A DNA stretch of 38,456 nucleotides, taken from NCBI GenBank assembly GCA_040387855.1, contig JAZKCY010000001.1, positions 592,337 through 630,792 of the forward strand, read 5' to 3'. Of this stretch, positions 5,145 to 26,895 are shown one piece after another. A program made the translations under genes and the position numbers. The notes beneath the pieces are model-generated. The model made no database searches. It had not been told where the DNA came from and worked only from the letters and a program-made list of their open reading frames with translations. The number at the start of each line of letters is the position of its first letter. Position 1 is the stretch's first letter. The stretch is from Patescibacteria group bacterium (lineage in GTDB: Bacteria > Patescibacteriota > Minisyncoccia > Phycocordibacterales > JAKAEA01).

Positions 5145-5336
5145 CTACTTACCATCGAAATAACCCCATATGAAAGCGACACAGGTAAGAATTACTACAG
5201 GTTTAAACAATAGAAACCATATGTAGAAATAGACACCAATTGCAATAATTGTGAAAAATATTATTGAATATTTAACAATGTCGTCCCATAGCGTAACTGT
5301 CATAATAATGCAACTTACCATAAGAGACGGACTCAT
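5145..5336 (-). CDS. small 2-TM membrane protein, hypothetical
   Basis: 63-aa hydrophobic ORF with backbone composition. Confidence 0.35.
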   Translation of the reverse strand: MSPSLMVSCIIMTVTLWDDIVKYSIIFFTIIAIGVYFYIWFLLFKPVVILTCVAFIWGYFDGK

Positions 5337-5355
5337 GCACTATTTTTTACAGAAT

Positions 5356-5399
5356 AAAAAAAAGGCGTGTACCGGGAGGGGCACAGCCTTGTACCAAGG
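5356..5399 (-). terminator. intrinsic terminator of the PEP-CTERM gene
   Basis: On the minus strand: CCTTG-gta-CAAGG, then GGCTGT...ACACGCC (bulged stem), then T8. Confidence 0.5.
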
Positions 5400-5441
5400 A
5401 TCTGTCGAACAAAGTACTAACACTGACCACCATCAGGGTGG

Positions 5442-6182
5442 TTACTGCCGGCGACGTCGCCGGGCCAGGAGCCCGAGAGCTCCGATTCCGATGAGCGCTG
5501 CGCTCGTCGGCTCTGGGACATTGACGCCCCAGTTGTTGGCGTACGCTGTTCCCGGGGAACTGGCGCCACCGAACTCGATCTGGTTGGCGAATGCCGCCAG
5601 ATCCGCTGTGCGGGTGATGAGAGCACCCGTACCCATGTTGGTCACGTCGAGGCGGAATTGCCCGTCGGTGATCATCGTGAAGCGGATGCTGTACGGATTC
5701 CCGTCGAGTGCGGCTAGCGTTTGCTTGCCGCTTCCGCTCTGGAGCTTGAGGTTTGACCCTTCAGCCAAGACGCTCGCCGCTCCCGTACGGGTGGTGGAAC
5801 CTGCGCCCTCACTCAAGCCGACCCATGTCGTCTGAAGCGAGGTTTGCACCGGCGGAGCGAATAGCACGGTTAAGTGATCGCCTGCCCGGAGTTCGCGCTC
5901 GAGAGAACGAACGTACGCGGTGGAGCCGGTCATTGCGAATGACTGGCCGAGGACGGAGTTCTTGATGACTCCCGAGGTGGCAGACGTGCTGCCAACCCAG
6001 TTGCCCACGAACCCGACCCCGCCGGCCTTGCCCACGACCGTCTGGTCGAGAGTGTATGCCGGATCGGATCCCTTGAGCTCGGCGATGTAGCCGGCGCTCA
6101 CGGGACTGGAAAAGACACTGCTGAGGATGAAGGCGATCGTGCTGATCGCCATCATCTTCCCCACTTGGTGAGGAACCTTCAT
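5442..6182 (-). CDS. secreted PEP-CTERM sorting-domain protein (high-GC cassette)
   Basis: The C-terminus VPEPTSAALIGIGALGLLARRRRRQ has PEP, a TM segment and an Arg cluster. The N-terminal signal peptide is MKVPHQVGKMMAISTIAFILSSVFSSPVSA. The start at 6182 is preceded by GGAGG (5-nt spacer). The track start 6302 is a TTG inside the -10 box. Confidence 0.8.
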   Translation of the reverse strand: MKVPHQVGKMMAISTIAFILSSVFSSPVSAGYIAELKGSDPAYTLDQTVVGKAGGVGFVGNWVGSTSATSGVIKNSVLGQSFAMTGSTAYVRSLERELRAGDHLTVLFAPPVQTSLQTTWVGLSEGAGSTTRTGAASVLAEGSNLKLQSGSGKQTLAALDGNPYSIRFTMITDGQFRLDVTNMGTGALITRTADLAAFANQIEFGGASSPGTAYANNWGVNVPEPTSAALIGIGALGLLARRRRRQ

Positions 6183-6301
6183 GAGAACCTCCAACGGGCG
6201 AATGAAGTGCGAGATCAGCAGGAGCATCCAAGCGCCTGCGGGTCCCCATTGAAGCAACACGACGTACACACGCCGATTAATTGCTGAACTGACTGGACTC
6301 A

Positions 6302-6330
6302 AGTATACAACATATCAAAGAAAAAAGCAA
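6302..6330 (-). promoter_or_regulatory. sigma70-like promoter for the PEP-CTERM gene
   Basis: Minus strand TTGCTT-17 nt-TATACT. It implies a GC-rich leader of about 110 nt. Confidence 0.4.
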
Positions 6331-6461
6331 GTACCTCACATATTTGATTTTAGAGCCTAAAATAACGATTCGTACTGATGAGCTTATTTCTGTGGATAAA
6401 TCTACCCTACTAGTTAATATAAAATTAACGATACATACTTTTGCTCTTTTATAGACGACAT

Positions 6462-6489
6462 TTGCACAAATGCAATTTTCCTGTACAAT
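6462..6489 (+). promoter_or_regulatory. candidate tRNA-Ala promoter
   Basis: TTGCAC-16 nt-TACAAT, ending 18 nt upstream of the tRNA 5' end. Confidence 0.4.
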
Positions 6490-6507
6490 GATTTTGTTAG
6501 TTTTACT

Positions 6508-6580
6508 GGGCCCTTAGCTCATCTGGTAGAGCACCTCATTTGCAATGAGGGGGTGGCAGGTTCGAGTCCTGTAGGGTCCA
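6508..6580 (+). tRNA. tRNA-Ala (anticodon UGC)
   Basis: I folded the cloverleaf by hand. The acceptor GGGCCCT/AGGGTCC includes the diagnostic G3:U70 pair. D arm is GCTC/GAGC and the anticodon stem is CCTCA/TGAGG with loop TTTGCAA. T arm is GCAGG-TTCGAGT-CCTGT. Discriminator is A and CCA is not encoded. Confidence 0.9.
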
Positions 6581-6632: not shown

Positions 6633-6661
6633 TTGACTTTATATCAATTTTATGATATTAT
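6633..6661 (+). promoter_or_regulatory. sigma70-like promoter with extended -10 for the zinc-ribbon gene
   Basis: TTGACT-17 nt-(TGa)TATTAT. Confidence 0.45.
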
Positions 6662-6716
6662 TCCAGTAGATCCCAAGCGAGATGCAAGGGACGACCTTAC
6701 CCAAGGAACTGGCGAG

Positions 6717-7412
6717 ATGCTGGTTCCCTTTGTGGCGAGATGCCACGGGAGTTTCGAGATGACTGCTACTGTAACTGGTCCGGCGACGTCGACCCCACAG
6801 TTAGATGCCTTCCTCAGGGAGTTCACCTTCCTCAGCAACCACTTCGATTTCAACTGGAAAAAACCGATTACCCACAGGGTGTCCCGGATCAACAGTTCGA
6901 TTTTGGATGTGTGCGCCATCGGTGAGTATCCCAAGGGACTTTACATCGGTCAACGCTATGTGACCGACCCCGACGAGACGATCGTGCTGTTCGATAAGAA
7001 TGGCTCGAGAATCGGCGATGTCGGTCGCGCAGTGATCACCAAGGAGATCGACGTAACGACAGGGTTCTGGTGGGACAGGAAAACCCACGTGAAGACCGTG
7101 AAGGAAACCACCTACTTCATGGAGTCGATCTGGGATTGCCTGAAGCGGCTGGGCGACGCAGTGAACGAGGTTCACTACATCGTCCGGACCAATTTCAGGA
7201 ACCAGTACTCTCACAAACCGACGATTGTCGTGTACAAGGCCCCTAAGGGCATGTCGATCATGGAGTTCATGGACTCCGAGATCAAGGAAGCGACCCTCGC
7301 GGTTGCAACCGAGATCATGGAGATCGACGGCAACAAGCCGTGCTGCAAGTGCCACTACGCACTACCGCAAGAAGCCAACTTCTGCTCCTCCTGCGGCCAC
7401 CCGCAAAAGTAA
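6717..7412 (+). CDS. hypothetical protein with C-terminal zinc-ribbon (high-GC cassette)
   Basis: 231 aa counted from the ATG at 6717 (AAGGA 9 nt upstream). The track start 6615 would translate the AT-rich promoter. The C-terminus CCKCHYALPQEANFCSSCGHP is a CxxC...CxxC ribbon. The N-terminal ~200 aa are unrecognised. Confidence 0.6.
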   Translation: MLVPFVARCHGSFEMTATVTGPATSTPQLDAFLREFTFLSNHFDFNWKKPITHRVSRINSSILDVCAIGEYPKGLYIGQRYVTDPDETIVLFDKNGSRIGDVGRAVITKEIDVTTGFWWDRKTHVKTVKETTYFMESIWDCLKRLGDAVNEVHYIVRTNFRNQYSHKPTIVVYKAPKGMSIMEFMDSEIKEATLAVATEIMEIDGNKPCCKCHYALPQEANFCSSCGHPQK

Positions 7413-7451
7413 GGAGCACAAAACCTTCCTCCAGGTATAATGGAGACAACC

Positions 7452-7479
7452 GAGCCCGGCGATTAACTTCGCCGGGCTC
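7452..7479 (+). terminator. perfect 10-bp hairpin downstream of the zinc-ribbon gene
   Basis: GAGCCCGGCG-attaactt-CGCCGGGCTC. The trailing U-tract is weak (AATCACATTTATTTT). Confidence 0.5.
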
Positions 7480-7495
7480 AATCACATTTATTTTA

Positions 7496-7642
7496 TTACT
7501 TACTCTTCTCTAGTTTCTCTATCTGCTTTTCCAAATCTTTAATCTTCTTTTTTTCTTCTGCCGATCCCTCACCCCATCCAGAAAGCATTGCTAATTCTTC
7601 ATTTAAGTCTTGTAGCTGTTCTTGTTTTGTTTTCTTTGCCAT
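7496..7642 (-). CDS. possible 48-aa charged coiled-coil peptide (below the ORF-track cutoff)
   Basis: Hand translation: MAKKTKQEQLQDLNEELAMLSGWGEGSAEEKKKIKDLEKQIEKLEKSK. It starts 6 nt after the antiporter stop. Backbone composition. No SD. Confidence 0.3.
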   Translation of the reverse strand: MAKKTKQEQLQDLNEELAMLSGWGEGSAEEKKKIKDLEKQIEKLEKSK

Positions 7643-11799: not shown

Positions 11800-12192
11800 A
11801 TGGTGATAGCAGCATTTGCTGCTTGTACGGCTGTGAAAAGGTTGTGGGCGAAGTTCTTGCGCTTCATGCGTATCCTCGCCCTGATCTTAGCAGGAGTAAT
11901 CCTGGGATGGTACGCAAAAACGTACCACCACAAAATCTCCAAGACATGGCAGTATCAGATGGCTTTCGGCTGGCTAGCCGATGAACCAACTGAGAAAGTC
12001 AGAGTCACGGAGAAAGTCTCCGACGGGACTGTAACCGTCGCGAGAATCCCAGGCAAAGCGTGGCATGCATTCCGGGAGGAGTTCAACAAACCTTCCGAGG
12101 TGCCGCCAGCATCCCCTGCCACACAGCCAACAACCAAACCAGCACAACGCTGGTGGCCCTTCTACCTAAGGAGCAAACCCGGACCGGGATAA
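11800..12192 (+). CDS. membrane-anchored hypothetical protein with Pro/Thr-rich C-terminus (high-GC cassette)
   Basis: 130 aa. It has one N-terminal TM segment (ILALILAGVILGWY) and the tail PPASPATQPTTKPAQ. GGAGG lies 6 nt upstream and a strong terminator follows. Confidence 0.55.
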   Translation: MVIAAFAACTAVKRLWAKFLRFMRILALILAGVILGWYAKTYHHKISKTWQYQMAFGWLADEPTEKVRVTEKVSDGTVTVARIPGKAWHAFREEFNKPSEVPPASPATQPTTKPAQRWWPFYLRSKPGPG

Positions 12193-12212
12193 TTATTTCC
12201 CCACGTCCAACG

Positions 12213-12250
12213 CCCTGCATCGCATTTCACTATGCGATGCAGGGTTTTCG
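12213..12250 (+). terminator. strong intrinsic terminator
   Basis: Perfect 13-bp stem CCCTGCATCGCAT-ttcact-ATGCGATGCAGGG followed by TTTTCGTTT. It abuts the ddl stop codon. Confidence 0.75.
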
Positions 12251-12251
12251 T

Positions 12252-13223
12252 TTATCTACGATGTGTATGAGCAAGAGTGATTAGATGCTCAAGAAAATCA
12301 GGAAAAGAAACTCCAATAGATTCCAAAGACTGTGGCAATAATGACTGTGGTGTAAGTCCAGGCAACGTATTTACTTCAAGAATGTACACACCTCTTCGGG
12401 GAGTTACAATAAAATCTGAGCGAGAGTAATGTCGCAAGCCTAAAGATTCATGTGCTAGTTTTGCTAGTCTTTGAATTTCTGCTTTTTCTAGTGCTGTAAA
12501 ATTGCCTGGGTATATTTCCTGAGTCTTACCGTTATATTTTGATTCATAATCAAAATGATCTGTATGTGAAGGATGAATTATTTCAACAGGTGGTAATATG
12601 TAGTGCGTTTCCCCACGTAATCCGTCGATAACTCCACAAGTAGCTTCCTTTCCTCGAATGTATTCTTCCATAAGTACCGTATCAGAATATTGAAATGCAT
12701 TATGAAAGGCTTCTTCTAAATGATTGAAATTTTTAACAATACTTACTCCCATTGATGATCCTGATGTTGCAGGTTTTACTACTATTGGCAAAAAGAAATG
12801 ATGAAACGCATAACTCACTTTCTCTTTTAGATTGTCTGTATGTCGTATAACTGTATGATATGGAGTTTTTAATCCATGATGAGTAAAAGCATTTTTTGAA
12901 AGTATCTTATTCATACCTACAGCTGATGCCATAGAACCAGAGCCAGTATATGGAAGTGCTAGCGCATCAAGAATTTGTTGCACCTTACCATCTTCGCCAT
13001 ATTCACCGTGTAGCGCATTAAAAACAACATCAACATGAGCTAATGCACGCTCTGGAGATTTTTCCATACCATCTCGATGCCAAGTACCATCTTTTGAAAT
13101 AAAAATATCGTGGCCGTGATATTTTTCTGGGAGATGTTTCAAAACAGCACCTCCACTTTTTAGAGAAACATCATATTCACTTGATGGACCGCCACGCAAT
13201 ACTGCCACTCGTAGTTTTGTCAT
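12252..13223 (-). CDS. ddl: D-alanine--D-alanine ligase
   Basis: 323 aa, ATP-grasp fold. It has the VAVLRGGPSSEYDVSL N-terminus, a HGEYGEDG motif and a LEVNTLPGLT C-terminal motif. TATACT lies 7 nt upstream of the ATG. Confidence 0.9.
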   Translation of the reverse strand: MTKLRVAVLRGGPSSEYDVSLKSGGAVLKHLPEKYHGHDIFISKDGTWHRDGMEKSPERALAHVDVVFNALHGEYGEDGKVQQILDALALPYTGSGSMASAVGMNKILSKNAFTHHGLKTPYHTVIRHTDNLKEKVSYAFHHFFLPIVVKPATSGSSMGVSIVKNFNHLEEAFHNAFQYSDTVLMEEYIRGKEATCGVIDGLRGETHYILPPVEIIHPSHTDHFDYESKYNGKTQEIYPGNFTALEKAEIQRLAKLAHESLGLRHYSRSDFIVTPRRGVYILEVNTLPGLTPQSLLPQSLESIGVSFPDFLEHLITLAHTHRR

Positions 13224-14593: not shown

Positions 14594-14764
14594 ATGAATT
14601 CTCTCAGAGGGCATCTCCAGTCTGATGAGGAGATGCTCAACCAATGTACGATGTTGCAGTGGCCAGTTGTGAAAACCTGGCTGTTTGTCTGCAATCATCT
14701 TCCCGCTCTCGTAGTCTGCACCATTGTTGCCGGCTGCGCGATCGTCTGGATGTGCAAGAATTAG
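14594..14764 (+). CDS. possible 56-aa Cys-rich hydrophobic peptide (below the ORF-track cutoff; high-GC cassette)
   Basis: Hand translation: MNSLRGHLQSDEEMLNQCTMLQWPVVKTWLFVCNHLPALVVCTIVAGCAIVWMCKN. GAGG lies 5 nt upstream, and a hairpin+T7 follows directly. It competes with the antisense 123-aa track ORF. Confidence 0.4.
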   Translation: MNSLRGHLQSDEEMLNQCTMLQWPVVKTWLFVCNHLPALVVCTIVAGCAIVWMCKN

Positions 14765-14768
14765 GGTT

Positions 14769-14792
14769 CGTCTTCCGAGGCGAGCTTTTTTT
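14769..14792 (+). terminator. intrinsic terminator after the 56-aa ORF
   Basis: CGTCT-tccg-AGGCG, then agc and TTTTTTT. Confidence 0.45.
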
Positions 14793-14801
14793 ATGTACCA
14801 T

Positions 14802-14830
14802 TTGACAAACTCATCTATTAGGCGTATCGT
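14802..14830 (+). promoter_or_regulatory. sigma70-like promoter
   Basis: TTGACA-17 nt-TATCGT, upstream of the ATG at 14871. Confidence 0.35.
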
Positions 14831-14870
14831 TTTAGTAGCACTCTTGCCCTTAGGGCAGAAAGGTTCCTCT

Positions 14871-15167
14871 ATGACCGCGTTGGAACGACAAGACTGGCTG
14901 AAGAAGCACTCGAGCAACCACATGACCATCATCATGCTCAGCATGTTCGGTGGCGGTGGGATCGCGGCACTCCTCAGCGTGATCTGGAAAGAGTCGTACT
15001 ACCTCATCGGCCTGATCCTGCTGGCCCTGGTGGTCGACATCGCCTACGTGTGGGTCATCGACATCCTGGCCACCAAGGAGCTGAAGGTTCGCGCTGCTCG
15101 AGCCGCACCGCCGGCGTCGACATCGACCCCCATACGCAGTGCGCCATCAGACCTACAGGCAGCCTAA
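14871..15167 (+). CDS. 2-TM membrane protein, hypothetical (high-GC cassette)
   Basis: 98 aa counted from the internal ATG (AAAGG 7 nt upstream). It has two hydrophobic helices and an Ala/Pro/Ser-rich tail. The track start 14724 would read through the terminator and promoter. Confidence 0.5.
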   Translation: MTALERQDWLKKHSSNHMTIIMLSMFGGGGIAALLSVIWKESYYLIGLILLALVVDIAYVWVIDILATKELKVRAARAAPPASTSTPIRSAPSDLQAA

Positions 15168-15168
15168 G

Positions 15169-15197
15169 ACCATTCGGCCCCCCGTTTGGCCTTTTTT
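15169..15197 (+). terminator. imperfect hairpin + T-run
   Basis: CCATTCGG-cccc-CCGTTTGG (two mismatches), then CCTTTTTTA. The T-run touches the uvrA stop. Confidence 0.35.
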
Positions 15198-17853
15198 ATT
15201 TCAAAATTTTCTTCAAATACTTTCCTGTGTGAGACTTAGGATTGTTTGCAACATCTTCAGGAGTTCCCTTTGCCACAATCTTTCCTCCTCCTACTCCTCC
15301 TTCAGGTCCAATATCTATAATATAATCTGAGCACTTAATGAGATCCATATTGTGTTCGATAACCATTACCGTATTTCCTTTATCTACAAGCTTCTGAAGA
15401 ATTTCAATAAGTTTATTTACATCTTCATAATGAAGACCAATTGTTGGTTCGTCCAAAAGATAAATAGTCTTCTGTACATGAGGCTTGTATAATTCTGAAG
15501 AAATTTTAACTCGCTGTGCTTCTCCACCAGAAAGTGTTGTTGCAGATTGACCCAATTTTAAGTATCCCAAACCTACTTCGTTGAGAGTTTTAAGTCTGTC
15601 TGAAATTGCCGGAATATCTTCAAAAAATGTAGTTGCCTCTTCTACTGTCATTTCAAGCACATCATAAATACTTTTCTTTTTGTACTTTACTTCAAGGGTT
15701 TCTTTCATAAAGCGCTTACCGTCACAAATATCACAGGGCACATACACTGTGGGCAAGAAACTCATTTCAACAGCAATTTCACCATTTCCCTGACATGCTT
15801 CACATCGTCCACCTTTTACGTTGAATGAAAATCGATTTGCCTTCCATCCTCGAGCTCGCGCTTCAGAACTTGTAGCAAACAAGTCTCGTATAAACGTGAA
15901 TGCACCAGTATATGTGGCAGGATTTGAGCGTGGTGTACGTCCAATAGCTGATTGATCTATAAGTACTGCTCTTCCTACATATTCAGTTCCATGAAAACTT
16001 GAGCAATTAAATATGTCATTAGTTCTATAGCGCTTTTCAAATCGTCCCTGCAAATTCTTATGGACAATCTCATACATGAATGTAGATTTTCCAGATCCAG
16101 AAACTCCCGTTACAGTAATCAATCTTCCAAGAGGAATATCAATATCCATATTTTTGATATTAAAGATATTTCCACCCCGCACCATAATTTTACCTTTATC
16201 CTGATCTCGACGTTCGCTAGGTACTTCAACTACTTTTTCACCACGAAGATATGAAAGCGTTACCGATCCAGAATCATTCTTTTTTGCTGTTAGCAATTTG
16301 TCTAAATATCCAGATACCACAATTTCACCACCATGAACTCCTGCTCCTGGTCCGATATCAATAATATAGTCAGAGGCAAAAATAGTATCTTCATCGTGTT
16401 CTACAACGATAATAGTATTCCCCATATCTCGTAGATTAAGAAGCGTTTTAATGAGTCTGTCATTATCTCGCTGGTGAAGACCAATAGTTGGTTCATCGAG
16501 TACGTAGAGCGCTCCTACAAGGCCCGATCCAAGCTGTGAAGCCAAACGAATTCGCTGAGCTTCTCCGCCAGACAATGTGTTGGCACGTCGATTGAGAGTA
16601 AGGTACTCGATACCCACATCTATCATAAAGATCAAACGCGCCTCTATTTCTTTAACCACAACCTTTGAAATACTTTTTTCTTTTGGAGTTAACTTAAGAT
16701 TTGAAAAGAAATCAAATGTTTCTTGAATAGAAAGCCCAACAAGATCAGAAATATTTAGCCCTGCAGGCTTTGTATAACCTGAGTTACTTTTTGCTTTTGT
16801 TTTATCTTTAGGATTTTCATCTGTTCCTAAGAATACATGCAATGCTTCTTCTCGTAGTCTAGTTCCATTACAAGTAGGACACAAATCTTCACCCATAAAA
16901 TACTTAGTACCCAAGCCGTTACACGTTGGACATGCTCCATAGGGTGAGTTGAATGAAAACAAACGAGGTTCGATTTCTGGATATGAGAATCCATCATATG
17001 GACACATAAACTTTGAAGAAATTAGTTTTTCTTCTTCAGGTGTGCATACTCTTAATAAACCTTTTGATTCTTCCAAGGCTTTTTCTACAGCTTCAGATAA
17101 ACGTTCTTTAGCTCCTGTTTCTGTCTTTGCATGAAATTCACTCACATACATTTCATCTACAAGCACATCTATGTTGTGCTTCTTATTTTTATCCAAAATT
17201 ATTTGCTCTCGAAGTTTTTTGACTTCTCCATCTATTTTTACCTGCTCATATCCTTTACCTAGTAAATCATAAAGCATTTGATAGTACTCACCTTTGCGAC
17301 CGACTACTATAGGCGACCAAATTTGAACTTTTAGTTTGTCATATTCAACTCCCATTACTTCGTGCTTTTTGCCTTTTGTATCAACAGCATTAATAGTCTC
17401 AAGAATCGTACTCATGATTTCTTCTTGAGTGAGCTTTTTTATTTCACGTCCACATTCCAAACAGTGAGGTCGGCCAATACGAGCATACAAAAGTCTTAGG
17501 TAATCATAAATCTCAGTTATAGTAGCTACGTTTGAGCGTGGATTATTTGATCGAGATTTTTGATCAATAGAAATAGCTGGAGAAAGACCAATGATTTCAT
17601 CAACATCAGGTTTTTGCATTTGTCGCAAAAACTGTCTGGCATATGAAGAAAGAGATTCTATATATCGTCGTTGACCTTCAGCAAAAATAGTATCAAATGC
17701 CAAAGACGACTTTCCTGATCCAGAAAGCCCTGTAAATACAACCATTTTATTGCGAGGCATTTCAACGGTCACATTCTTAAGATTGTGAGTTCGTGCTCCT
17801 TTTACAATGATTTTGTCTTTATTATCACCGCCGATGTCTGTTTTTGTGGCCAT
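15196..17853 (-). CDS. uvrA: excinuclease ABC subunit A
   Basis: 885 aa. It has two ABC ATPase modules ([10 protein letters not shown] and GVSGSGKST Walker A; LSGGEAQR signatures twice) and zinc-finger CxxC pairs. Confidence 0.95.
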
Positions 17854-17965
17854 ACTAGTTATATAAAAATGATGCGTTAAATCCCTATGGCGCTGGCCGT
17901 AGGGGTTGTATATCTCTTTGAATAGACAGATTCTAGCATACTTTCTGACAAATTGAACTTACAAA

Positions 17966-18002
17966 TAAAAAAACACGTAGTGAGCCGAAGCAAACTGCGT
18001 GT
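17966..18002 (-). terminator. intrinsic terminator of the csrA-HTH gene
   Basis: On the minus strand ACACG/CGTGT plus an inner helix around a CTTCGG-type loop, followed by T7. Confidence 0.55.
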
Positions 18003-18010
18003 GTATGGTA

Positions 18011-18421
18011 CTACTTTTCCACCTTGATCTTAAGCATCTCCATCTTCCGATCGAGGTCTCCACGGGTGATGTTGAGTGATGCTGCTGCGGCAGAAATGTC
18101 GCCCTTATGACGCAGCAACACCTGCCCGATCAGACGCTTCTCAGCATTGTCCTCATCAATTTGCTTGATGTCAGCAGCCGCTTTCTGAGGCGTTGAGGAC
18201 CCTGCAAGCCGACCAATTCCTGTGAGGTCCTCGGGCCGCACTTGCGCAGCCGCGCGGTTCTCGCGGCGGATGGCATCGTACACCTCTTTGCGGTGAACGC
18301 TGATCTCCCGAGGTGCGGTGATCCCGAGACGAACTTTGTCGCCTCGGATGTCGACGACGGTGACCTCAATATCGTCGCCTATCATCACTGTCTCATCGCG
18401 TTGGCGTGACAGTACTAACAT
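18011..18421 (-). CDS. csrA: CsrA RNA-binding domain fused to a C-terminal Fis/NtrC-type HTH (high-GC cassette)
   Basis: The N-terminus [48 protein letters not shown] aligns residue for residue with CsrA. The C-terminus [39 protein letters not shown] matches the Fis-family HTH pattern. AGGAGG lies 8 nt upstream. Confidence 0.85.
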
Positions 18422-18496
18422 GTGGCGGTCCTCCTAAACGTGCTTCGCACGCGTGGGGTGCGAAGTGAAACTCCGTTTCAAAGGTTGTCCCGCCAC
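18422..18496 (-). promoter_or_regulatory. structured 5' leader with a GGA-loop hairpin (candidate CsrA autoregulatory site)
   Basis: Minus strand reads GTGGCGG...[GAAAC-GGA-GTTTC]-a-[CTTCGCAC-cccacgc-GTGCGAAG]...AGGAGG-a-CCGCCAC-ATG. The outer 7-bp helix pairs 18490-18496 with 18422-18428, between the SD and the ATG. Confidence 0.45.
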
Positions 18497-18521
18497 GTTG
18501 GCAAGAACAAAACCTAGTTTG

Positions 18522-18549
18522 AAAATAACACTTATATATGAAAAGTCAA
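18522..18549 (-). promoter_or_regulatory. sigma70-like promoter for csrA-HTH
   Basis: Minus strand TTGACT-16 nt-TATTTT. Confidence 0.4.
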
Positions 18550-18575
18550 GAGCTGTCTGTTTTAAAACAAATTAT

Positions 18576-18613
18576 AAAAAAACTGTGAGCATCCCCGGAG
18601 GGACACACACAGT
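18576..18613 (-). terminator. intrinsic terminator of the 140-aa gene
   Basis: Minus strand ACTGTG...CACAGT with an inner TCCC/GGGA helix, followed by T7. Confidence 0.6.
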
Positions 18614-18617
18614 TGTG

Positions 18618-19040
18618 CTACGCCTTTTCAGGCTCGAGCGGGCCGAAGACGAGGGTGTGACCCAGGTCGGGCGACACCAAGAAGAACACGTCTTGCCGTG
18701 AAGCGGGACCCAGGACTTCTCGTCCTGTCAGGATCACCGTGGCGATCAGGTTGACCTTGCAGATCTCCGCTGCCCGCTTGGCGGCAGCGCTGGGATCCTC
18801 CACCTCGAAGCCGATCACGTTGGCCGGGTTGTTGAGCGTGGCGCTCACATCGGCGTTGGTCCGCTCGATGAACACCGGCCGGACCGTGGCCATCTCGAAT
18901 GGCCGGTAGGTGGCCCCGGGGGTCACGTTGGGATTGCCTTCCTCCACGATTTCCCCGATCTCGTTCACGATCCGGCAAACGGCCGCGAGGGCGTTGGGGT
19001 TCACGAAGGTCGGACAAAAACGAACGATTGGCTTTCGCAT
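18618..19040 (-). CDS. hypothetical 140-aa protein (high-GC cassette), upstream neighbour of csrA-HTH
   Basis: AGGAGG lies 7 nt upstream. It has its own promoter and terminator. I recognise no domain. The overlapping R/G-rich frame 18628-19017 is rejected. Confidence 0.55.
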   Translation of the reverse strand: MRKPIVRFCPTFVNPNALAAVCRIVNEIGEIVEEGNPNVTPGATYRPFEMATVRPVFIERTNADVSATLNNPANVIGFEVEDPSAAAKRAAEICKVNLIATVILTGREVLGPASRQDVFFLVSPDLGHTLVFGPLEPEKA

Positions 19041-19087
19041 AGCTACGCCTCCTGGCGTACGGGTTAAGAACTCAAAACACGGTCTAT

Positions 19088-19116
19088 ACTATACCATAAT
19101 ATGTGTATCTAGTCTA
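19088..19116 (-). promoter_or_regulatory. sigma70-like promoter with extended -10
   Basis: Minus strand TAGACT-17 nt-(TGg)TATAGT, 5 nt from the uvrB stop. Confidence 0.4.
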
Positions 19117-19120
19117 CATA

Positions 19121-21163
19121 TTACTTCTTACCCTTCTTTTTACTTCCCTGCTTTTCCAATCTCTCAATAAGCTCTTTTATTTCATCACGTAAAATTGCTG
19201 CAGTTTCAAAATCGAGTTGCTTCACTGCATCATTCATGTGCTTTTCTTTTTCAGCAATTAATTTCTTTGGTTCTTTTTCAAATCGCTTTTCATCTATTTT
19301 GAGCAAATCAAATACTGTCTTTTGATGTTCACTTTTTATATGCTCAGAAATATCATTAATATTTTTAATAATAGTCTTTGGAGTAATATTATGCTTTGTA
19401 TTATATGCAACCTGAATTTCTCGTCGGCGATTTGTCTCACCAATTGCTCGTTCCATTGATCCGGTCATAACATCCGCATAGAGAATTACTCGTCCCAATA
19501 CATTTCGAGCGGCTCGTCCAATTGTCTGAATAAGCGAAGTTTCTGATCGCAAAAAGCCTTCTTTATCTGCATCCAAAATTCCAATAAGCTGCACCTCAGG
19601 CATATCCAAACCTTCTCGAAGTAAGTTGACCCCCACAATTACATCGAACTTTCCTTTTCGGAAATCAGAAATAATTTGGATTCGCTCCATTGTTTTTATT
19701 CCCGAGTGAAGATATTCAGCTTTGATTTTCTTTTCTTTCAGATATTCACTCAAATCTTCAGCCATCTTTTTAGTAAGTGTAGTAGCAATAACTCGCCCAC
19801 CATTCTTAATAGTCTTTTCTGTTTCTTCAATAAAATCAAAAATTTGTCCCTTATAGCTACCCTTTTCTACAACTGGTCGCACAGTAAGCTCAGGATCAAT
19901 TAGTCCTGTAGGTCGAATCACTTGTTCAACAAACACTTCACTCTTTTCCTTTTCGTATTTACCTGGAGTTGCCGATACATACATAGTCTGGCCCACTCGA
20001 GCTTCAAATTCATTAAACTTCATTGGTCTATTATCACGAGCCGAAGGAAGTCTAAAACCATGTTCAATAAGTGTATCTTTTCGAGACTTATCTCCAGCAT
20101 ACATACCATTGAGCTGCGGGACAGTCACATGAGATTCGTCAATCACAGTTAAAAAGTCGGGAGTTCCATCTGCCTTATGAGGAAAATATGCGAGAAGTGA
20201 ATCGGGAGCCTCACCTGATGGTTTACCAGAAAAATGTCGGGAGTAATTTTCAATACCGTTGCAATAACCAATCTCCTGAATCATAGCCAAGTCATAACTC
20301 GTGCGGCGTTTGAGTCGTTCTGCTTCGAGAATCTTTCCCATGGAATTTAGTTCTTCCAAGCGCTCTTTGAGTTCTTTCTTAATAGAAACCACTGCACGTT
20401 CTAATTGTGGTTTGTCGGTAATAAAATGTTTAGCTGGAAATAAGAAAAATGTTTTTACTTCTTCAATAATAGATCGTGTGATTGCATCTATCTTTGTAAT
20501 GCTTTCTATAGTATTTGCAGAAAGTTGGATTTTATAAATAACGTTTTCACTCACTGGCATAATTTCCACAGAGTTTCCAAGTGCTCGAAATACTCCAGGA
20601 TTGAGATCGGCTCCTGTTCGTTCGTAATGAATATCAATAAGCTTTCGAATAAATTCTGCACGTGAAATAGTCATACCTACATCGATACGCATATTTACTT
20701 TTTGATATTCAACTGGACTTCCCAAGCCGTAAATACAAGAAACTGTTGCAACGATCAATACATCTTTGCGTGTTAAAAGAGCCTGTGTTGAGGCATGTCT
20801 CAATCTGTCTATTTCCTCATTGATTTGAGCTTCTTTTTCAATAAAAGTATCAGTAACTGGAAGATACGCTTCAGGCTGATAGTAGTCGTAATATGATACG
20901 AAATAGTGGACTGCATTATCTGGGAAGAATTCTTTAAACTCCTGAGCAAGCTGTGCCGCAAGAGTTTTGTTGTGAGCAATAACAAGGGTCGGTTTTTGAA
21001 TTGCTTGTACTACATTTGCTGCAGTAAAAGTTTTTCCTGATCCAGTTACACCCAAAAGGGTGAGATGCTTCATATCCTTCTTCAATCCATCAACAAGCTT
21101 TTCAATAGCTTTTGGTTGATCTCCGGCGGGTTTATATTCAGATTTAATATTGAATCCTGACAT
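19121..21163 (-). CDS. uvrB: excinuclease ABC subunit B
   Basis: 680 aa. It has helicase motifs (GVTGSGKT, DESH), a beta-hairpin region and a C-terminal UVR domain (LDFETAAILRDEI). TATAGT lies 6 nt upstream of the ATG. Confidence 0.95.
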   Translation of the reverse strand: MSGFNIKSEYKPAGDQPKAIEKLVDGLKKDMKHLTLLGVTGSGKTFTAANVVQAIQKPTLVIAHNKTLAAQLAQEFKEFFPDNAVHYFVSYYDYYQPEAYLPVTDTFIEKEAQINEEIDRLRHASTQALLTRKDVLIVATVSCIYGLGSPVEYQKVNMRIDVGMTISRAEFIRKLIDIHYERTGADLNPGVFRALGNSVEIMPVSENVIYKIQLSANTIESITKIDAITRSIIEEVKTFFLFPAKHFITDKPQLERAVVSIKKELKERLEELNSMGKILEAERLKRRTSYDLAMIQEIGYCNGIENYSRHFSGKPSGEAPDSLLAYFPHKADGTPDFLTVIDESHVTVPQLNGMYAGDKSRKDTLIEHGFRLPSARDNRPMKFNEFEARVGQTMYVSATPGKYEKEKSEVFVEQVIRPTGLIDPELTVRPVVEKGSYKGQIFDFIEETEKTIKNGGRVIATTLTKKMAEDLSEYLKEKKIKAEYLHSGIKTMERIQIISDFRKGKFDVIVGVNLLREGLDMPEVQLIGILDADKEGFLRSETSLIQTIGRAARNVLGRVILYADVMTGSMERAIGETNRRREIQVAYNTKHNITPKTIIKNINDISEHIKSEHQKTVFDLLKIDEKRFEKEPKKLIAEKEKHMNDAVKQLDFETAAILRDEIKELIERLEKQGSKKKGKK

Positions 21164-21216
21164 GTCGATACTATACAGTTAAATAGACGTTTAATAAAGA
21201 AAAAATAACAGGACAA

Positions 21217-21247
21217 TAAAAAACCGCGACAACTAGGCCGGCGGGTT
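21217..21247 (-). terminator. candidate terminator overlapping the stop of the 118-aa gene
   Basis: Minus strand AACCCGC...GCGGTT (one bulge) followed by TTTTTT. Confidence 0.4.
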
Positions 21248-21589
21248 TGGATCTTTCGGGGGTGCCTCATGGTAGAAGATAATTTGGTCAGTGCCATCTA
21301 CGGCAATGGCACAATTCTCATTCCATGAAATCACCCTCACAATTCGAGCTTCGTTCAGGCGAGAAAAAACTCCGTTGATGGATACAACAGCACCCTTGAA
21401 GAGCGAAACGTTCTCTTCAACAACGGTAACGGTGATCCGATTACTTGGTTGAAAGAACAGAACAAACGCATCCTCGGGGCTATTGATGTCGTAGTACTTT
21501 CCCTCCTTGAGCTTGGTTGAGGACGTGACAGGAATAGTACGCTTTTTCGGCACGAATCGTTTTACAAACTTGTTTACTCTAGCAGGCAT
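21233..21589 (-). CDS. hypothetical 118-aa protein (GC-elevated cassette)
   Basis: The start at 21589 (MPARVNKF...) is preceded by GGAAGGGAGG. The track start 21619 lies in the promoter/leader. No domain recognised. Confidence 0.5.
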   Translation of the reverse strand: MPARVNKFVKRFVPKKRTIPVTSSTKLKEGKYYDINSPEDAFVLFFQPSNRITVTVVEENVSLFKGAVVSINGVFSRLNEARIVRVISWNENCAIAVDGTDQIIFYHEAPPKDPNPPA

Positions 21590-21974: not shown

Positions 21975-22013
21975 ATATAAATGTGTATAAAAAAAGACCG
22001 CCTTGCGACGAGT

Positions 22014-22598
22014 CTAGTATGGAGGCTTTTCTCCGCGCTTCCACCAGTCTGCAGGATCTGGAGGTTTGGTCTGAGGAGGAGGTGGTGCCTCTTCATTTGG
22101 CCTTTTGGTTTCCTCGCTCGCACGGTCTTGAGCGCCCGCAAGTGCACTCATAAAGATTGACTCTGATTGAACGAGGAGATGTTTGTCACTACCCGTAAAC
22201 GTCCCACCTTGTCGTTTGTGGCGAAACACCAAAAGGACTCCACTGACACTTCCCAACGATGTGAGCCTCATTGCGATCACATCGTTGTCTGCCAAGGCGC
22301 GTAGATGTGAAAATCTCCGCCGACTAGCCGAGAGCGTCACGAGCCCTTCATGAATAGCTCGTGACACCACCACATGCTCCAAAGCGGAGAGTACATCCTT
22401 CGTCTTTGGCACAGTGTGTTTGAAGTATGCCACATTCTCAAAGTGACCCTTTTCCTGCTTGAGCCACAAAGCAATGTTGAGCCCCCTCAAATTCCGAATT
22501 ATCCAATCCATGTAGATTGCAACAACTCGTTGAGGATTGGGATTGGAGGAAGCCAACAGCATGTTAACAAGCTGAACGATACGCTCTGCGTCGCTCAT
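22014..22598 (-). CDS. GAF-like domain protein with Pro-rich C-terminal tail (GC-elevated cassette)
   Basis: 194 aa. The segment ...GVLLVFRHKRQGGTFTGSDKHLLVQSESIFMSAL resembles the C-terminal half of GAF domains. The tail is EEAPPPPQTKPPDPADWW. GGAG lies 7 nt upstream. Confidence 0.55.
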   Translation of the reverse strand: MSDAERIVQLVNMLLASSNPNPQRVVAIYMDWIIRNLRGLNIALWLKQEKGHFENVAYFKHTVPKTKDVLSALEHVVVSRAIHEGLVTLSASRRRFSHLRALADNDVIAMRLTSLGSVSGVLLVFRHKRQGGTFTGSDKHLLVQSESIFMSALAGAQDRASEETKRPNEEAPPPPQTKPPDPADWWKRGEKPPY

Positions 22599-23902: not shown

Positions 23903-23997
23903 AGGTACACACTATAAGAATATGTTGGGTTATGCAAGGTAAACGGGCTCATCAATATCTTAATAGAAAATTCATGATGGATTTTGTATAAATACTC

Positions 23998-24025
23998 TTG
24001 ACCTCGTCGATAAGAGGTATATACT
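23998..24025 (+). promoter_or_regulatory. sigma70-like promoter
   Basis: TTGACC-16 nt-TATACT. Confidence 0.45.
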
Positions 24026-24031
24026 TTTTGA

Positions 24032-24118
24032 TAGCAGTTCCCCGGCACTATGGACAGTGTCGGACGCCCAAGCACCAGGCGTTGTAAACCAAGAGGTGCA
24101 TCTCGAGGAGTGTTTTAC
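24032..24118 (+). promoter_or_regulatory. structured GC-rich 5' leader (three consecutive hairpins)
   Basis: CCGGCACT/AGTGTCGG (24042-24063), ACGCC/GGCGT (24064-24082) and TGTAAA/TTTACA (24083-24119). The last helix encloses the GAGGAG SD and reaches the start codon. Confidence 0.35.
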
Positions 24119-24289
24119 ATGCGTCCCACCACCGCCCACGACGTGATTCGTTCCCGCATCGAGCCCGCTGTCACCCAGCCGGCACCGTCGGTCATCGTTC
24201 ACCCGGACACCGTGGAGACCTACCCCAAGGACCACGTGCCGGGTCGGGAGAGCACCATGCCCTCCCACACCAAGTACTCCGGCGACTGA
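24119..24289 (+). CDS. 56-aa hypothetical peptide (high-GC cassette; below the ORF-track cutoff if started here)
   Basis: MRPTTAHDVIRSRIEPAVTQPAPSVIVHPDTVETYPKDHVPGRESTMPSHTKYSGD. GAGGAG lies 8 nt upstream. The alternative SD-less start at 24050 gives 79 aa. Confidence 0.45.
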   Translation: MRPTTAHDVIRSRIEPAVTQPAPSVIVHPDTVETYPKDHVPGRESTMPSHTKYSGD

Positions 24290-24346
24290 TCGCCCGCAAG
24301 CCGGCGCGTCAGCCAGTTCACAGCGAGCCTAGCTCGCACAAACAAA

Positions 24347-24386
24347 GAGGACCCCGCAACACGTTGCGAAGGCCCTCATTTTTTTT
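24347..24386 (+). terminator. intrinsic terminator
   Basis: GAGGACCCCGCAAC-ac-GTTGCGAAGGCCCTC followed by ATTTTTTTT. Confidence 0.7.
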
Positions 24387-24403
24387 GCTATTTTTTATAT
24401 CAC

Positions 24404-24631
24404 TTAGGCTACCTTTTCTGCAGGACCAGCTTCTTCGTCTGATTCTTCATTTTCAATCTTCCATGGGTTGTTTCCTACTGGAGCATTGATATCATCTACT
24501 GTTCCAATATCATCAGAAGGTGCGAGATCAATTTTTCCTATAACGTCTTTACCCTCTGCTTCTGAAATTTTTCGTTCAGCATCGTTATCAATTTCTGCTG
24601 CACCTCCCATATTCTTCATTTCTTCTGACAT
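24404..24631 (-). CDS. small acidic hypothetical protein
   Basis: 75 aa, D/E-rich. It lies downstream of the FKBP gene on the same strand. Backbone composition. Confidence 0.4.
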   Translation of the reverse strand: MSEEMKNMGGAAEIDNDAERKISEAEGKDVIGKIDLAPSDDIGTVDDINAPVGNNPWKIENEESDEEAGPAEKVA

Positions 24632-26191: not shown

Positions 26192-26213
26192 GTTATGTAC
26201 GTGAACAGAAGCT

Positions 26214-26822
26214 TTATGCTGCCACCACTTTCAGCTGCTTGAGCCACTCGTAGATCTCCTTAAAGATCGTATCGAGTGGCCGTTCACCGCCTATGGTGAT
26301 GAAGTTGAGCTCATGAGCATCATGTGCTCTTTCAAGCTCTGCACGGAGCGGCGGGAAGTCCCGCTCAAATTCCTCGATCCGCCGATCGATTACATCTATG
26401 GTCTCGCCCTTACGCCGACGGCTCTCCATTCGAGCCTTAGCAGCGCTAGCCGAAACCTCGATGTTGAAGACGATGATGTTTCCATCGTTACGCTCATCAG
26501 TCCAGCGCCTCAGGTGCTGATACTGATTGATGTTACGCGGAACTCCATCGTCAACACGGTTCCCCGGAGGGATCCTATCGAGTGCAGGTCGGTAGATCCT
26601 TGGCAGCAGGATCTGATCTGGAACGAGAAGACCCTGCGACGAGTATCCGTGCACGAGCTGCCCAAGTTCAGTGCTTGGTGAGATGTTGCGACACTCATCC
26701 CCCACATTGATCGAGGGCCAGTCCAACGCTTCCAAGATCTTCGAACCCTGGGTACCTTTGCCACAGCCCGGATAACCTACAAGTAGGATAACCGTGCCAT
26801 TAGCCGATTCAGCATTTCTCAA
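26214..26822 (-). CDS. adenylate kinase-family P-loop nucleoside-monophosphate kinase (high-GC cassette), TTG start
   Basis: It has the GYPGCGKGTQ Walker A, GLLVPD and DDGVPRN (compare DGFPR). The start codon is TTG with GGAGG 6 nt upstream. There is no in-frame ATG before the P-loop. Confidence 0.7.
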   Translation of the reverse strand: MRNAESANGTVILLVGYPGCGKGTQGSKILEALDWPSINVGDECRNISPSTELGQLVHGYSSQGLLVPDQILLPRIYRPALDRIPPGNRVDDGVPRNINQYQHLRRWTDERNDGNIIVFNIEVSASAAKARMESRRRKGETIDVIDRRIEEFERDFPPLRAELERAHDAHELNFITIGGERPLDTIFKEIYEWLKQLKVVAA

Positions 26823-26866
26823 AAGTCACCTCCACGAGTTAATTCAGGTGTACGACGCCAGACGAA

Positions 26867-26895
26867 ATACTACTGATTTATTAAAAATGTGTCAA
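26867..26895 (-). promoter_or_regulatory. sigma70-like promoter
   Basis: Minus strand TTGACA-17 nt-TAGTAT, ending 7 nt from the CapA stop. Confidence 0.45.

Follow-up and report, generated by a model that had tools for sequence, protein, structure and literature searches.

A CsrA protein with a C-terminal Fis/NtrC-type domain encoded between uvrB and uvrA in a Paceibacteria bacterium

The stretch of DNA analyzed here (38,456 nt, hereafter the window) comes from a Patescibacteria group bacterium (assembly GCA_040387855.1, contig JAZKCY010000001.1, positions 592,337 to 630,792) and carries, between uvrB and uvrA, a gene for a 136-residue protein in which a CsrA RNA-binding domain is joined through a flexible linker to a helix-turn-helix (HTH) domain of the HTH_8 family. 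A GC content of 36-39% is found in the surrounding housekeeping genes (uvrB, uvrA, uvrC, ddl and tgt), and the nearest named relatives of UvrB, at 74-82% identity, belong to Candidatus Parcubacteria, Paceibacter and Paceibacterota; judged by these sequences, the host is a Paceibacteria bacterium of the candidate phyla radiation (CPR, or Patescibacteria), and the contig is about 0.98 Mb long. CsrA is an obligate dimer, an interleaved beta-sandwich, and canonical CsrA proteins have a single domain of 60-75 residues; the protein described here differs in its length, in its folded second domain and in its occurrence in a CPR bacterium.

The fusion gene is an uninterrupted open reading frame (ORF) from ATG to TAG at 18011..18421 on the minus strand, the strand of all features of this gene given below. 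Residues 1-52 (18266..18421) match the Pfam CsrA family (PF02599) with 87.6 bits (E = 5.4e-25; threshold 27) and pass two NCBIfam CsrA equivalogs (NF002469, 94.7 bits versus a cut-off of 73; TIGR00202, 86.9 versus 70.1). The flexible linker spans residues 61-87 (18161..18241), and a three-helix domain of the Fis/NtrC type spans residues 82-129 (18035..18178); within the latter, residues 93-128 match Pfam HTH_8 (PF02954) with 33.4 bits (E = 3.7e-8; gathering score 22), and faint NCBIfam matches are to the C-termini of the NtrC-family proteins PrsR, DhaR and NorR (E 0.002-0.01). These searches bear out an earlier note on this DNA, made from the letters alone, which had assigned the N-terminal ~50 residues to CsrA and the C-terminus to HTH_8 within a single gene. 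With the CsrA/RsmA family (E. coli CsrA, Pseudomonas RsmA and RsmE, Bacillus CsrA) the fusion shares its first 55-60 residues, among them those that are key to RNA binding. Taking these to be, from mutagenesis of E. coli CsrA, L2, L4, R6, R7, V40, V42, R44 and I47, with R44 essential, we find L2, L4, R6, V42 and R44 identical in the fusion and the other three substituted (R7Q, V40I and I47V). In an AlphaFold2 monomer model the CsrA part shows the beta strands and a C-terminal helix, at a predicted local distance difference test (pLDDT) score of only 51-66.

The fusion is a single polypeptide and not the product of an assembly or frameshift error, because the Logan assembly of the same run (SRR26324620) is identical and because the ortholog is likewise one continuous ORF. 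The Logan sequence agrees letter for letter with 15011..21421 of the window and has uvrB, a small ORF, the fusion gene and uvrA in the same arrangement. One NCBI gene call for the locus is a 76-aa C-terminal piece (P0007) that starts from an internal GTG at 18241; this GTG lacks a Shine-Dalgarno sequence (SD), a strong SD lies upstream of the ATG at 18421, and the full-length 136-aa product with both Pfam domains is also on public record. The ortholog, P0008 at locus L001, has 125 residues and is 63% identical over 99% of the query, with the same architecture; it was found in two other samples (MJUJ01014287.1 and SRR5896284), again between uvrB and uvrA. The two orthologs differ to saturation at synonymous sites (proportion of synonymous differences, pS, 0.74-0.92). 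For the CsrA core the corresponding nonsynonymous value (pN) is 0.05 against a pS of 0.92, so that the ratio of nonsynonymous to synonymous rates (dN/dS) is far below 1, and for the tail, which is 38% identical, dN/dS is ~0.2. Because of these values, both parts of the fusion are, as far as the sequence comparison tells, under purifying selection, the tail more weakly.

To what fold the tail belongs was addressed by structure prediction and profile comparison. From an alignment of the two orthologs and weak HTH_8 matches, AlphaFold2 predicted three helices for the tail by itself, at a pLDDT of 87-91. In the full-length model, where the tail was covered by the two orthologs only, helices appear at residues 82-104, 109-115 and 120-129 (pLDDT 79-89), and residues 61-87 fall below 50, as a disordered linker of ~27 residues would. 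The best Foldseek matches in the PDB were Fis, the DNA-binding domain of NtrC4, NtrX, ZraR and NtrC1, with a root mean square deviation of 0.6-1.4 Å over 47-50 residues and a probability of 1.00; the E-values were only 0.07-0.3, as expected because the domain is so short, and nearly all of the best 40 PDB matches are Fis and NtrC-family DNA-binding domains. Aligned by hhalign to a small HTH_8 set, partly picked by similarity to these tails and having Fis as its sole fully independent member, the window tail scored 97.8% and the ortholog tail 92.5%. The tail shares with the HTH_8 domains of Fis and the NtrC family (NtrC4, NtrX, ZraR and the PEP-CTERM-box regulator PrsR) the same three-helix fold, a long helix followed by a helix-turn-helix that superposes on Fis and NtrC4 at ~1 Å, and it contains the HTH_8 pattern G-[ND]-x3-AA-x-L-x-I-x-R. 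BLASTP of the tail directly against E. coli Fis gave no alignment, so the relationship to Fis is visible only at the level of profile and fold. Because the AlphaFold2, Foldseek and hhalign results agree, we regard the predicted Fis/NtrC-type fold as solid. The proteins differ in what surrounds this fold: the AAA+ sigma-54 activation and receiver domains of the NtrC family have no counterpart among the 136 residues, nor do the N-terminal beta-hairpin arm and helix A of Fis, which form the four-helix dimer core. In alignment, the first part of the linker corresponds to the tail typical of stand-alone CsrAs of the same subfamily, which indicates that the HTH was added beyond a pre-existing proline/glycine-rich CsrA tail.

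This architecture appears to be extremely rare. When a profile of the tail was compared, with no word index, to 1.84 billion representative proteins, nothing but the cluster of the query itself matched below 1e-10; each of the remaining 14 matches (E 5e-8 to 6e-4) is an ordinary HTH_8 repeat or an NtrC-type tail. A word-index search with the tail P0007 found only itself. Scans with the tail of 185,579 species genomes, of the JGI metagenome contigs and of the IMG/VR viral set recovered a single fusion locus, the L001 contig, which came from the metagenomes; the genomes gave two irrelevant Bacteroidales NtrC-type tails and the viral set nothing. By tblastn against plasmids there was no full-length match, ordinary CsrA alone being found at no more than 63% coverage, and no description of a CsrA-HTH fusion was found in the literature. 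HTH_8-tailed CsrA is thus seen in only two sequences; the searches were made with the tail, so independent CsrA fusions to a more canonical HTH_8 domain may exist. That the architecture is unusual, as the earlier note had proposed, agrees with the one other locus recovered from protein, genome, metagenome and viral scans. The metagenomes also contain natural proteins of 133-229 aa in which two CsrA domains stand in tandem on one chain, joined by a short glycine- or proline-rich linker (P0001-P0006, P0009-P0011, P0098 and P0112). They belong to the same CsrA subfamily as the fusion; P0001-P0006 and P0009-P0011 have the same proline/glycine-rich linker, and differ in that the second domain is CsrA and not an HTH.

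By its sequence the fusion gene is a single-gene unit with its own predicted promoter and terminator. The promoter, at 18522..18549, is sigma-70-like (TTGACT-16-TATTTT, with a TG) and AT-rich like the host genome; TTGACA-like -35 boxes stand at the same relative place in all orthologous genes, and the position of the promoter implies a predicted leader of ~94 nt. The intrinsic terminator, a UUCG-loop hairpin followed by U7 at 17966..18002, folds with -10.6 kcal/mol (z = -3.0); a terminator scanner gave nothing here or at the neighboring 140-aa gene described below, and both terminators were seen by direct folding. In the leader, the minimum free energy and centroid folds both contain a 7-bp long-range helix whose 5′ strand, GUGGCGG (18490..18496), pairs with CCGCCAC (18422..18428), a 3′ strand that fills the spacer between SD and ATG, such that the helix encloses two hairpins and the SD. 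The first hairpin, UGAAAC-GGA-GUUUCA (18466..18480), presents a GGA triloop on a 6-bp stem and is a candidate high-affinity CsrA site. The second, CUUCGCAC-CCCACGC-GUGCGAAG (18443..18465), has an 8-bp stem without GGA and is likewise present in both folds. The SD, AGGAGG (18430..18435), stands 8 nt before the ATG, contains with the following A two overlapping GGA motifs, and is a candidate low-affinity site. Four GGA motifs are found in the whole leader, including the one in the hairpin loop and the two in the SD; several GGA motifs, one of them overlapping the SD, are also a feature of the E. coli-type csrA leader, the CsrA sites here being candidates. Both GGA elements had been pointed out in the earlier note, which gave the hairpin a 5-bp stem.

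These elements recur among the relatives. GGA-loop hairpins, counted where a stem of at least 5 bp closes a 3-5-nt loop with GGA, number 6 in the 600 nt of six orthologous csrA leaders, compared with a background of 27 in 209,542 nt, a ~75-fold enrichment; such a hairpin occurs in four of the six leaders, where shuffling gave a mean of 0.06 and in 2000 rounds never reached four. Examples are CAGCC-GGA-GGCUG, which lies on the SD of L001, GACUC-GGA-GAGUC in L007 and UGGCA-CGGA-UGCCA in L008. The six leaders are dissimilar in sequence, yet GGA-loop hairpins and GGA-containing SDs recur in them, and all six fold better than their shuffles (z = -0.9 to -2.3). In L008 and L009, the 5′ leader and the region of the start codon form helices of 13 bp and 12 bp, respectively (P <= 0.003).

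From this arrangement we propose that a CsrA dimer would bind the GGA of the leader hairpin (18466-18480) together with the SD GGA ~40 nt downstream, and that the bound protein would block ribosome access and repress its own translation, in the manner of glgC and csrA in E. coli. CsrA represses glgC, through a hairpin-loop site and the SD, as well as its own mRNA, and RsmA stabilizes an SD-containing hairpin in psl (PMC7652899). By this analogy the case for CsrA-type translational autorepression of the fusion gene is fairly strong. Several observations weigh against it. The transcription start site is a prediction from the promoter; the clamp helix lies within chance, as a helix of at least 7 bp at the start region arose in 27% of shuffles (P = 0.27); the fold of the whole window leader is not exceptional (z = -0.9 to -1.65); and the GGA hairpins of the remaining two leaders, L009 and L010, are imperfect only. 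Of the autoregulation suggested by the earlier note, the GGA part thus gains from the recurrence of GGA-loop hairpins and GGA-containing SDs in orthologous leaders; the clamp is present in both predicted folds and does not exceed chance in the window.

We compared the uvrB-uvrA locus of the window with that of ten relatives and found a CsrA gene in the spacer in 8 of the 11 loci (the window and seven relatives); L011 and L012 have no CsrA there, and the L013 contig stops before the position. The proteins in this slot share a core and differ in their tails. Besides the HTH_8 tails of the window (136 aa) and L001 (125 aa), there are a helical tail of no known family in L007 (110 aa), tail domains of no known family in L008 (163 aa) and L009 (158 aa), a C-terminal hydrophobic helix in L010 (115 aa), and a proline-rich tail only in L014 (89 aa); the CsrA of the P0144 contig has 140 aa. 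The syntenic Paceibacteria CsrAs of L007, L008, L009, L010 and L014 have the same locus, core, strong promoter and structured GGA-containing leader as the fusion, and their tails, which comprise a helical segment of 55 residues, domains of ~100 residues, a membrane helix or proline-rich sequence only, are unrelated to HTH_8 and match no Pfam family. The L010 protein (6190-6537) ends in GGGGTIFAWWWLIFILVLI, a hydrophobic C-terminal helix that follows a proline-rich linker, which suggests that this CsrA is membrane-anchored. The csrA gene is a long-standing resident of the clade.

In composition the gene looks foreign. The GC content at third codon positions (GC3) is 0.67 and 0.61 in the two halves of the fusion (0.64 for the gene), against 0.19-0.27 in core genes, and with proteins that bear the name of Planctomycetota, Phycisphaerae or Tepidisphaeraceae CsrA, and with metagenome proteins, the CsrA core shares 85-97% identity. 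Because of this GC3 and the near-identity of the core to Planctomycetota CsrA, the sequences hint at exchange with high-GC bacteria, whether neighbors or hosts. Recent horizontal transfer as the whole explanation of the GC-rich islet that holds the gene was considered and is weakened by the clade-wide occurrence of CsrA in the slot and by syntenic, homologous GC3-rich genes in relatives.

As to what the tail does, we favor a model in which it tethers the regulator to DNA. CsrA being an obligate dimer, the linkers would be long enough to let both tails come together; the HTH_8 domains could in that case associate as in a Fis/NtrC DNA-binding dimer and hold the protein on DNA, probably with low specificity. 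RNA would in that event be captured next to the nucleoid or to nascent transcripts, or transcription and translation of the target would be coupled. DNA tethering is kept as the leading reading because the characterized HTH_8 domains, all of them to our knowledge, bind DNA and because the CsrA dimer supplies the dimeric geometry needed; we grant it rather less than an even chance, with a role other than DNA binding almost as likely. The contact residues were read off an alignment of the tail to Fis that covers only Fis residues ~56 to 98, taking the DNA-contact positions of Fis, from Fis-DNA crystal structures, to be N73, T75, R76, N84, R85, T87, R89 and K90. At these positions the window protein and the ortholog, respectively, have D108 and D (Fis N73), S110 and E (T75), A111 and T (R76), T119 and T (N84), R120 and V (R85), D122 and Q (T87), D124 and K (R89), and R125 and E (K90). 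Retention in the window tail of R120, R125 and K126, the equivalents of Fis R85, K90 and K91, counts for DNA binding, as does a net charge of +3 over its last 46 residues, the equivalent part of Fis having presumably about +7.

A longer list of observations counts against DNA binding. Several contact residues of Fis are replaced, those at three of the eight positions by acidic ones in the window protein (D108, D122 and D124), and there is no Arg at the equivalent of Fis R76. The ortholog has V-P-Q in place of Fis R85-G-T, and has hence lost the key Arg85 equivalent, and E-A in place of K90-K91; the net charge of its tail is 0, and the tail has no Pfam HTH_8 match at E <= 0.1. What the two tails have in common is mainly the hydrophobic core and a few surface residues (E-K, Q, G-D, L-K-I-x-V). 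As for an operator-like motif common to both fusion loci, only one 11-mer with a mismatch was found, as chance predicts. Finally, sister lineages have unrelated modules in place of the HTH_8 tail. The earlier note had spoken of a DNA-binding HTH; the HTH fold stands by Pfam, AlphaFold2 and Foldseek, and the DNA binding, which is read from the fold only, is a weaker reading, the contact residues being partly acidic in the window protein and mostly lost in the ortholog.

The strongest alternative, which we consider quite possible if less so than tethering, keeps the CsrA core and the autoregulation as above and supposes that the HTH_8-fold tail no longer binds DNA, having become an interchangeable accessory module that controls CsrA. 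It might be an extra dimerization or oligomerization unit, a partner docking site comparable to that of Bacillus CsrA for FliW, or an acidic lid acting in cis on the basic RNA-binding surface. The divergence of the contact positions between orthologs with the core kept, the difference in tail charge and the variety of tails among relatives (the membrane helix of L010, the helical domains of L007-L009, the proline-rich tail of L014) all favor this, as do D108, D122 and D124 and an acidic DEDNAE segment of the linker. CsrA ranks among the most thoroughly studied post-transcriptional regulators of bacteria and is usually regarded as a minimal protein of one domain, with its activity set by decoy small RNAs or by FliW; no FliW gene and no Csr-type decoy RNA was seen in the 38-kb window (no Rfam match, no GGA-dense stretch), and for this reason some other control of CsrA activity is to be expected. 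FliW is known to bind a C-terminal extension of CsrA (PMC7652899). In Bacillus and Campylobacter, too, such an extension is the handle for regulation; there it consists of ~15 unstructured or helical residues with the FliW gene adjoining, whereas the fusion has a folded 50-residue domain. Against the accessory module stand the DNA-binding record of the HTH_8 family, the Arg85 equivalent and the R-K pair retained in the recognition helix of the window protein, and the lack of a conserved adjoining partner gene, the clpS-like neighbor of the relatives being absent from the window.

We think it improbable that the tail is a functionless remnant, part of a foreign gene that came to be translated when a stop codon was lost, with the protein working as a plain CsrA. 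The low identity of the tails, their quick turnover in the clade and the foreign composition of both halves would fit such an origin, but the frame and three-helix fold have been kept in two lineages with saturated synonymous sites and a dN/dS of ~0.2, the fold is predicted confidently, and hhalign recognizes even the ortholog tail as HTH_8. Hardly credible, finally, is an artefact in which a faulty assembly or a frameshift merged two separate genes, or in which the real gene is only the 76-aa HTH part that one NCBI call starts at GTG 18241, given the identical Logan assembly, the continuous ORF in two other samples, the SD before ATG 18421 and the full-length call on record.

Our best explanation, then, is that the product is a functional CsrA-family translational regulator with an extra C-terminal module, which represses its own translation and is tethered to DNA; taken as a whole we hold it tentatively, at a little under an even chance, and the tethering step is its weakest part. 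More speculative, and on balance unlikely, is the broader idea that the clade uses a CsrA core at a fixed locus as a modular chassis for alternative C-terminal address modules, with one protein here binding both DNA and GGA-containing mRNA. If true, the protein would form a physical link between the nucleoid or transcription and the repression of translation, in an organism whose regulators are very few and for which no Csr small RNA or FliW antagonist is known. A CsrA that carries a folded Fis/NtrC-type domain, or a membrane anchor or other domains at this locus in sister lineages, would represent a different way to control or localize this regulator, and a tail that binds DNA would make the fusion a compact natural case of a single protein that reads signals in DNA as well as in mRNA. 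For the CPR, with tiny genomes and few recognizable regulators, a csrA gene with a strong promoter, a conserved position and a foreign composition is of interest. One study lists csrA among the genes that ultra-small prokaryotes of groundwater express at a high level (PMC9938205).

Directly upstream of the fusion gene lies an orphan gene for a 140-aa protein (18618..19040, minus strand; GC3 0.82), a separate transcription unit with its own promoter (19088..19116, minus strand) and terminator (18576..18614, minus strand; z = -5.3). Its SD is held in a hairpin, UACGCC-AGGA-GGCGUA (19044..19059, minus strand), 3 nt before the ATG, which makes the gene a candidate CsrA target. Counting both strands, the window has only four GGA-loop hairpins whose stem reaches 6 bp or more, and two of them are in the leaders of the two islet genes. 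By analogy, the fusion probably also represses this neighbor; we consider autorepression and repression of the neighbor well-founded inferences because the arrangement matches that of glgC and csrA and resembles that of psl. Gene callers disagree on the ORF: NCBI gives the 140 aa and Logan 129 aa in another frame (18628-19017, minus strand), the Logan product being Arg-rich and off-frame-looking and the 140-aa frame being balanced in composition and preceded by a strong SD. Pfam, NCBIfam and a PDB sequence search gave no family or structure match for the 140-aa protein, and no homolog was found in relatives or in any database searched. In three relatives the syntenic csrA is immediately preceded by a small clpS-like gene (L007 7164-7481, L013 4305-4637, L014 5106-5459); these genes are mutually homologous, with a weak Pfam ClpS match in L014, and the orphan gene stands in their place in the window. 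A role of the 140-aa ORF as a FliW-like or ClpS-like partner found no support in Pfam, NCBIfam, the PDB search or BLAST against the clpS-like genes of the relatives. Elsewhere, in L008 (642-1043), a hypothetical gene of 118 aa has four GGA-loop hairpins clustered around its start, and the stem of one of them (UUUCCUCCA-GAGGA-UGGAGGAAA) has 9 bp; by these motifs, this gene may be another CsrA target.

On the other side of the fusion gene, the uvrA mRNA has a leader hairpin, CCCCUA...UAGGGG, right after the -10 box (about 17890-17925, minus strand). It is present in 8 of 8 loci compared (the window, L001 and L007-L012), and its inner stem and loop vary with pairing kept (CCCCTAGAGC/GCTCTAGGGG in L007, CGCCCTCA/TGAGGGCG in L011). 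Because loci without a CsrA gene also have it, the hairpin does not depend on the fusion; it might stabilize the 5′ end or serve as an operator.

The window as a whole contains about nine GC-rich islets (50-62% GC, GC3 0.5-0.82) among core genes of 36-39% GC and GC3 0.19-0.27, located at 5322-6350, 6645-7540, 11893-12309, 14595-15281, 17976-19137 (the islet of the fusion gene), 21978-22527, 23991-24460 and 26205-26886. Each looks like a small gene flanked by an AT-rich promoter and terminator. For at least one ORF, orf194 (22014-22598), relatives have homologs in synteny that are likewise GC3-rich, which indicates that the two-composition pattern is a feature of the lineage and not only of recent transfer. 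At 5442-6302 (minus strand; GC3 0.74) is a 286-aa protein with a signal or transmembrane start and a C-terminal PEP-CTERM sorting motif (Pfam 27.1 bits versus 20.7), a motif unexpected in a CPR bacterium because it normally accompanies exosortase systems of Gram-negative bacteria. The islet at 23991-24460 includes a GC-rich segment (24050-24289, plus strand) with no Rfam match and short ORFs only, among them one of 56 aa with a GAGGAG SD. Within the islet at 26205-26886 lies an adenylate-kinase-like ORF (26214-26822, minus strand; 202 aa, Pfam ADK 63.5 bits, GC3 0.59), which may be a second, foreign adk.

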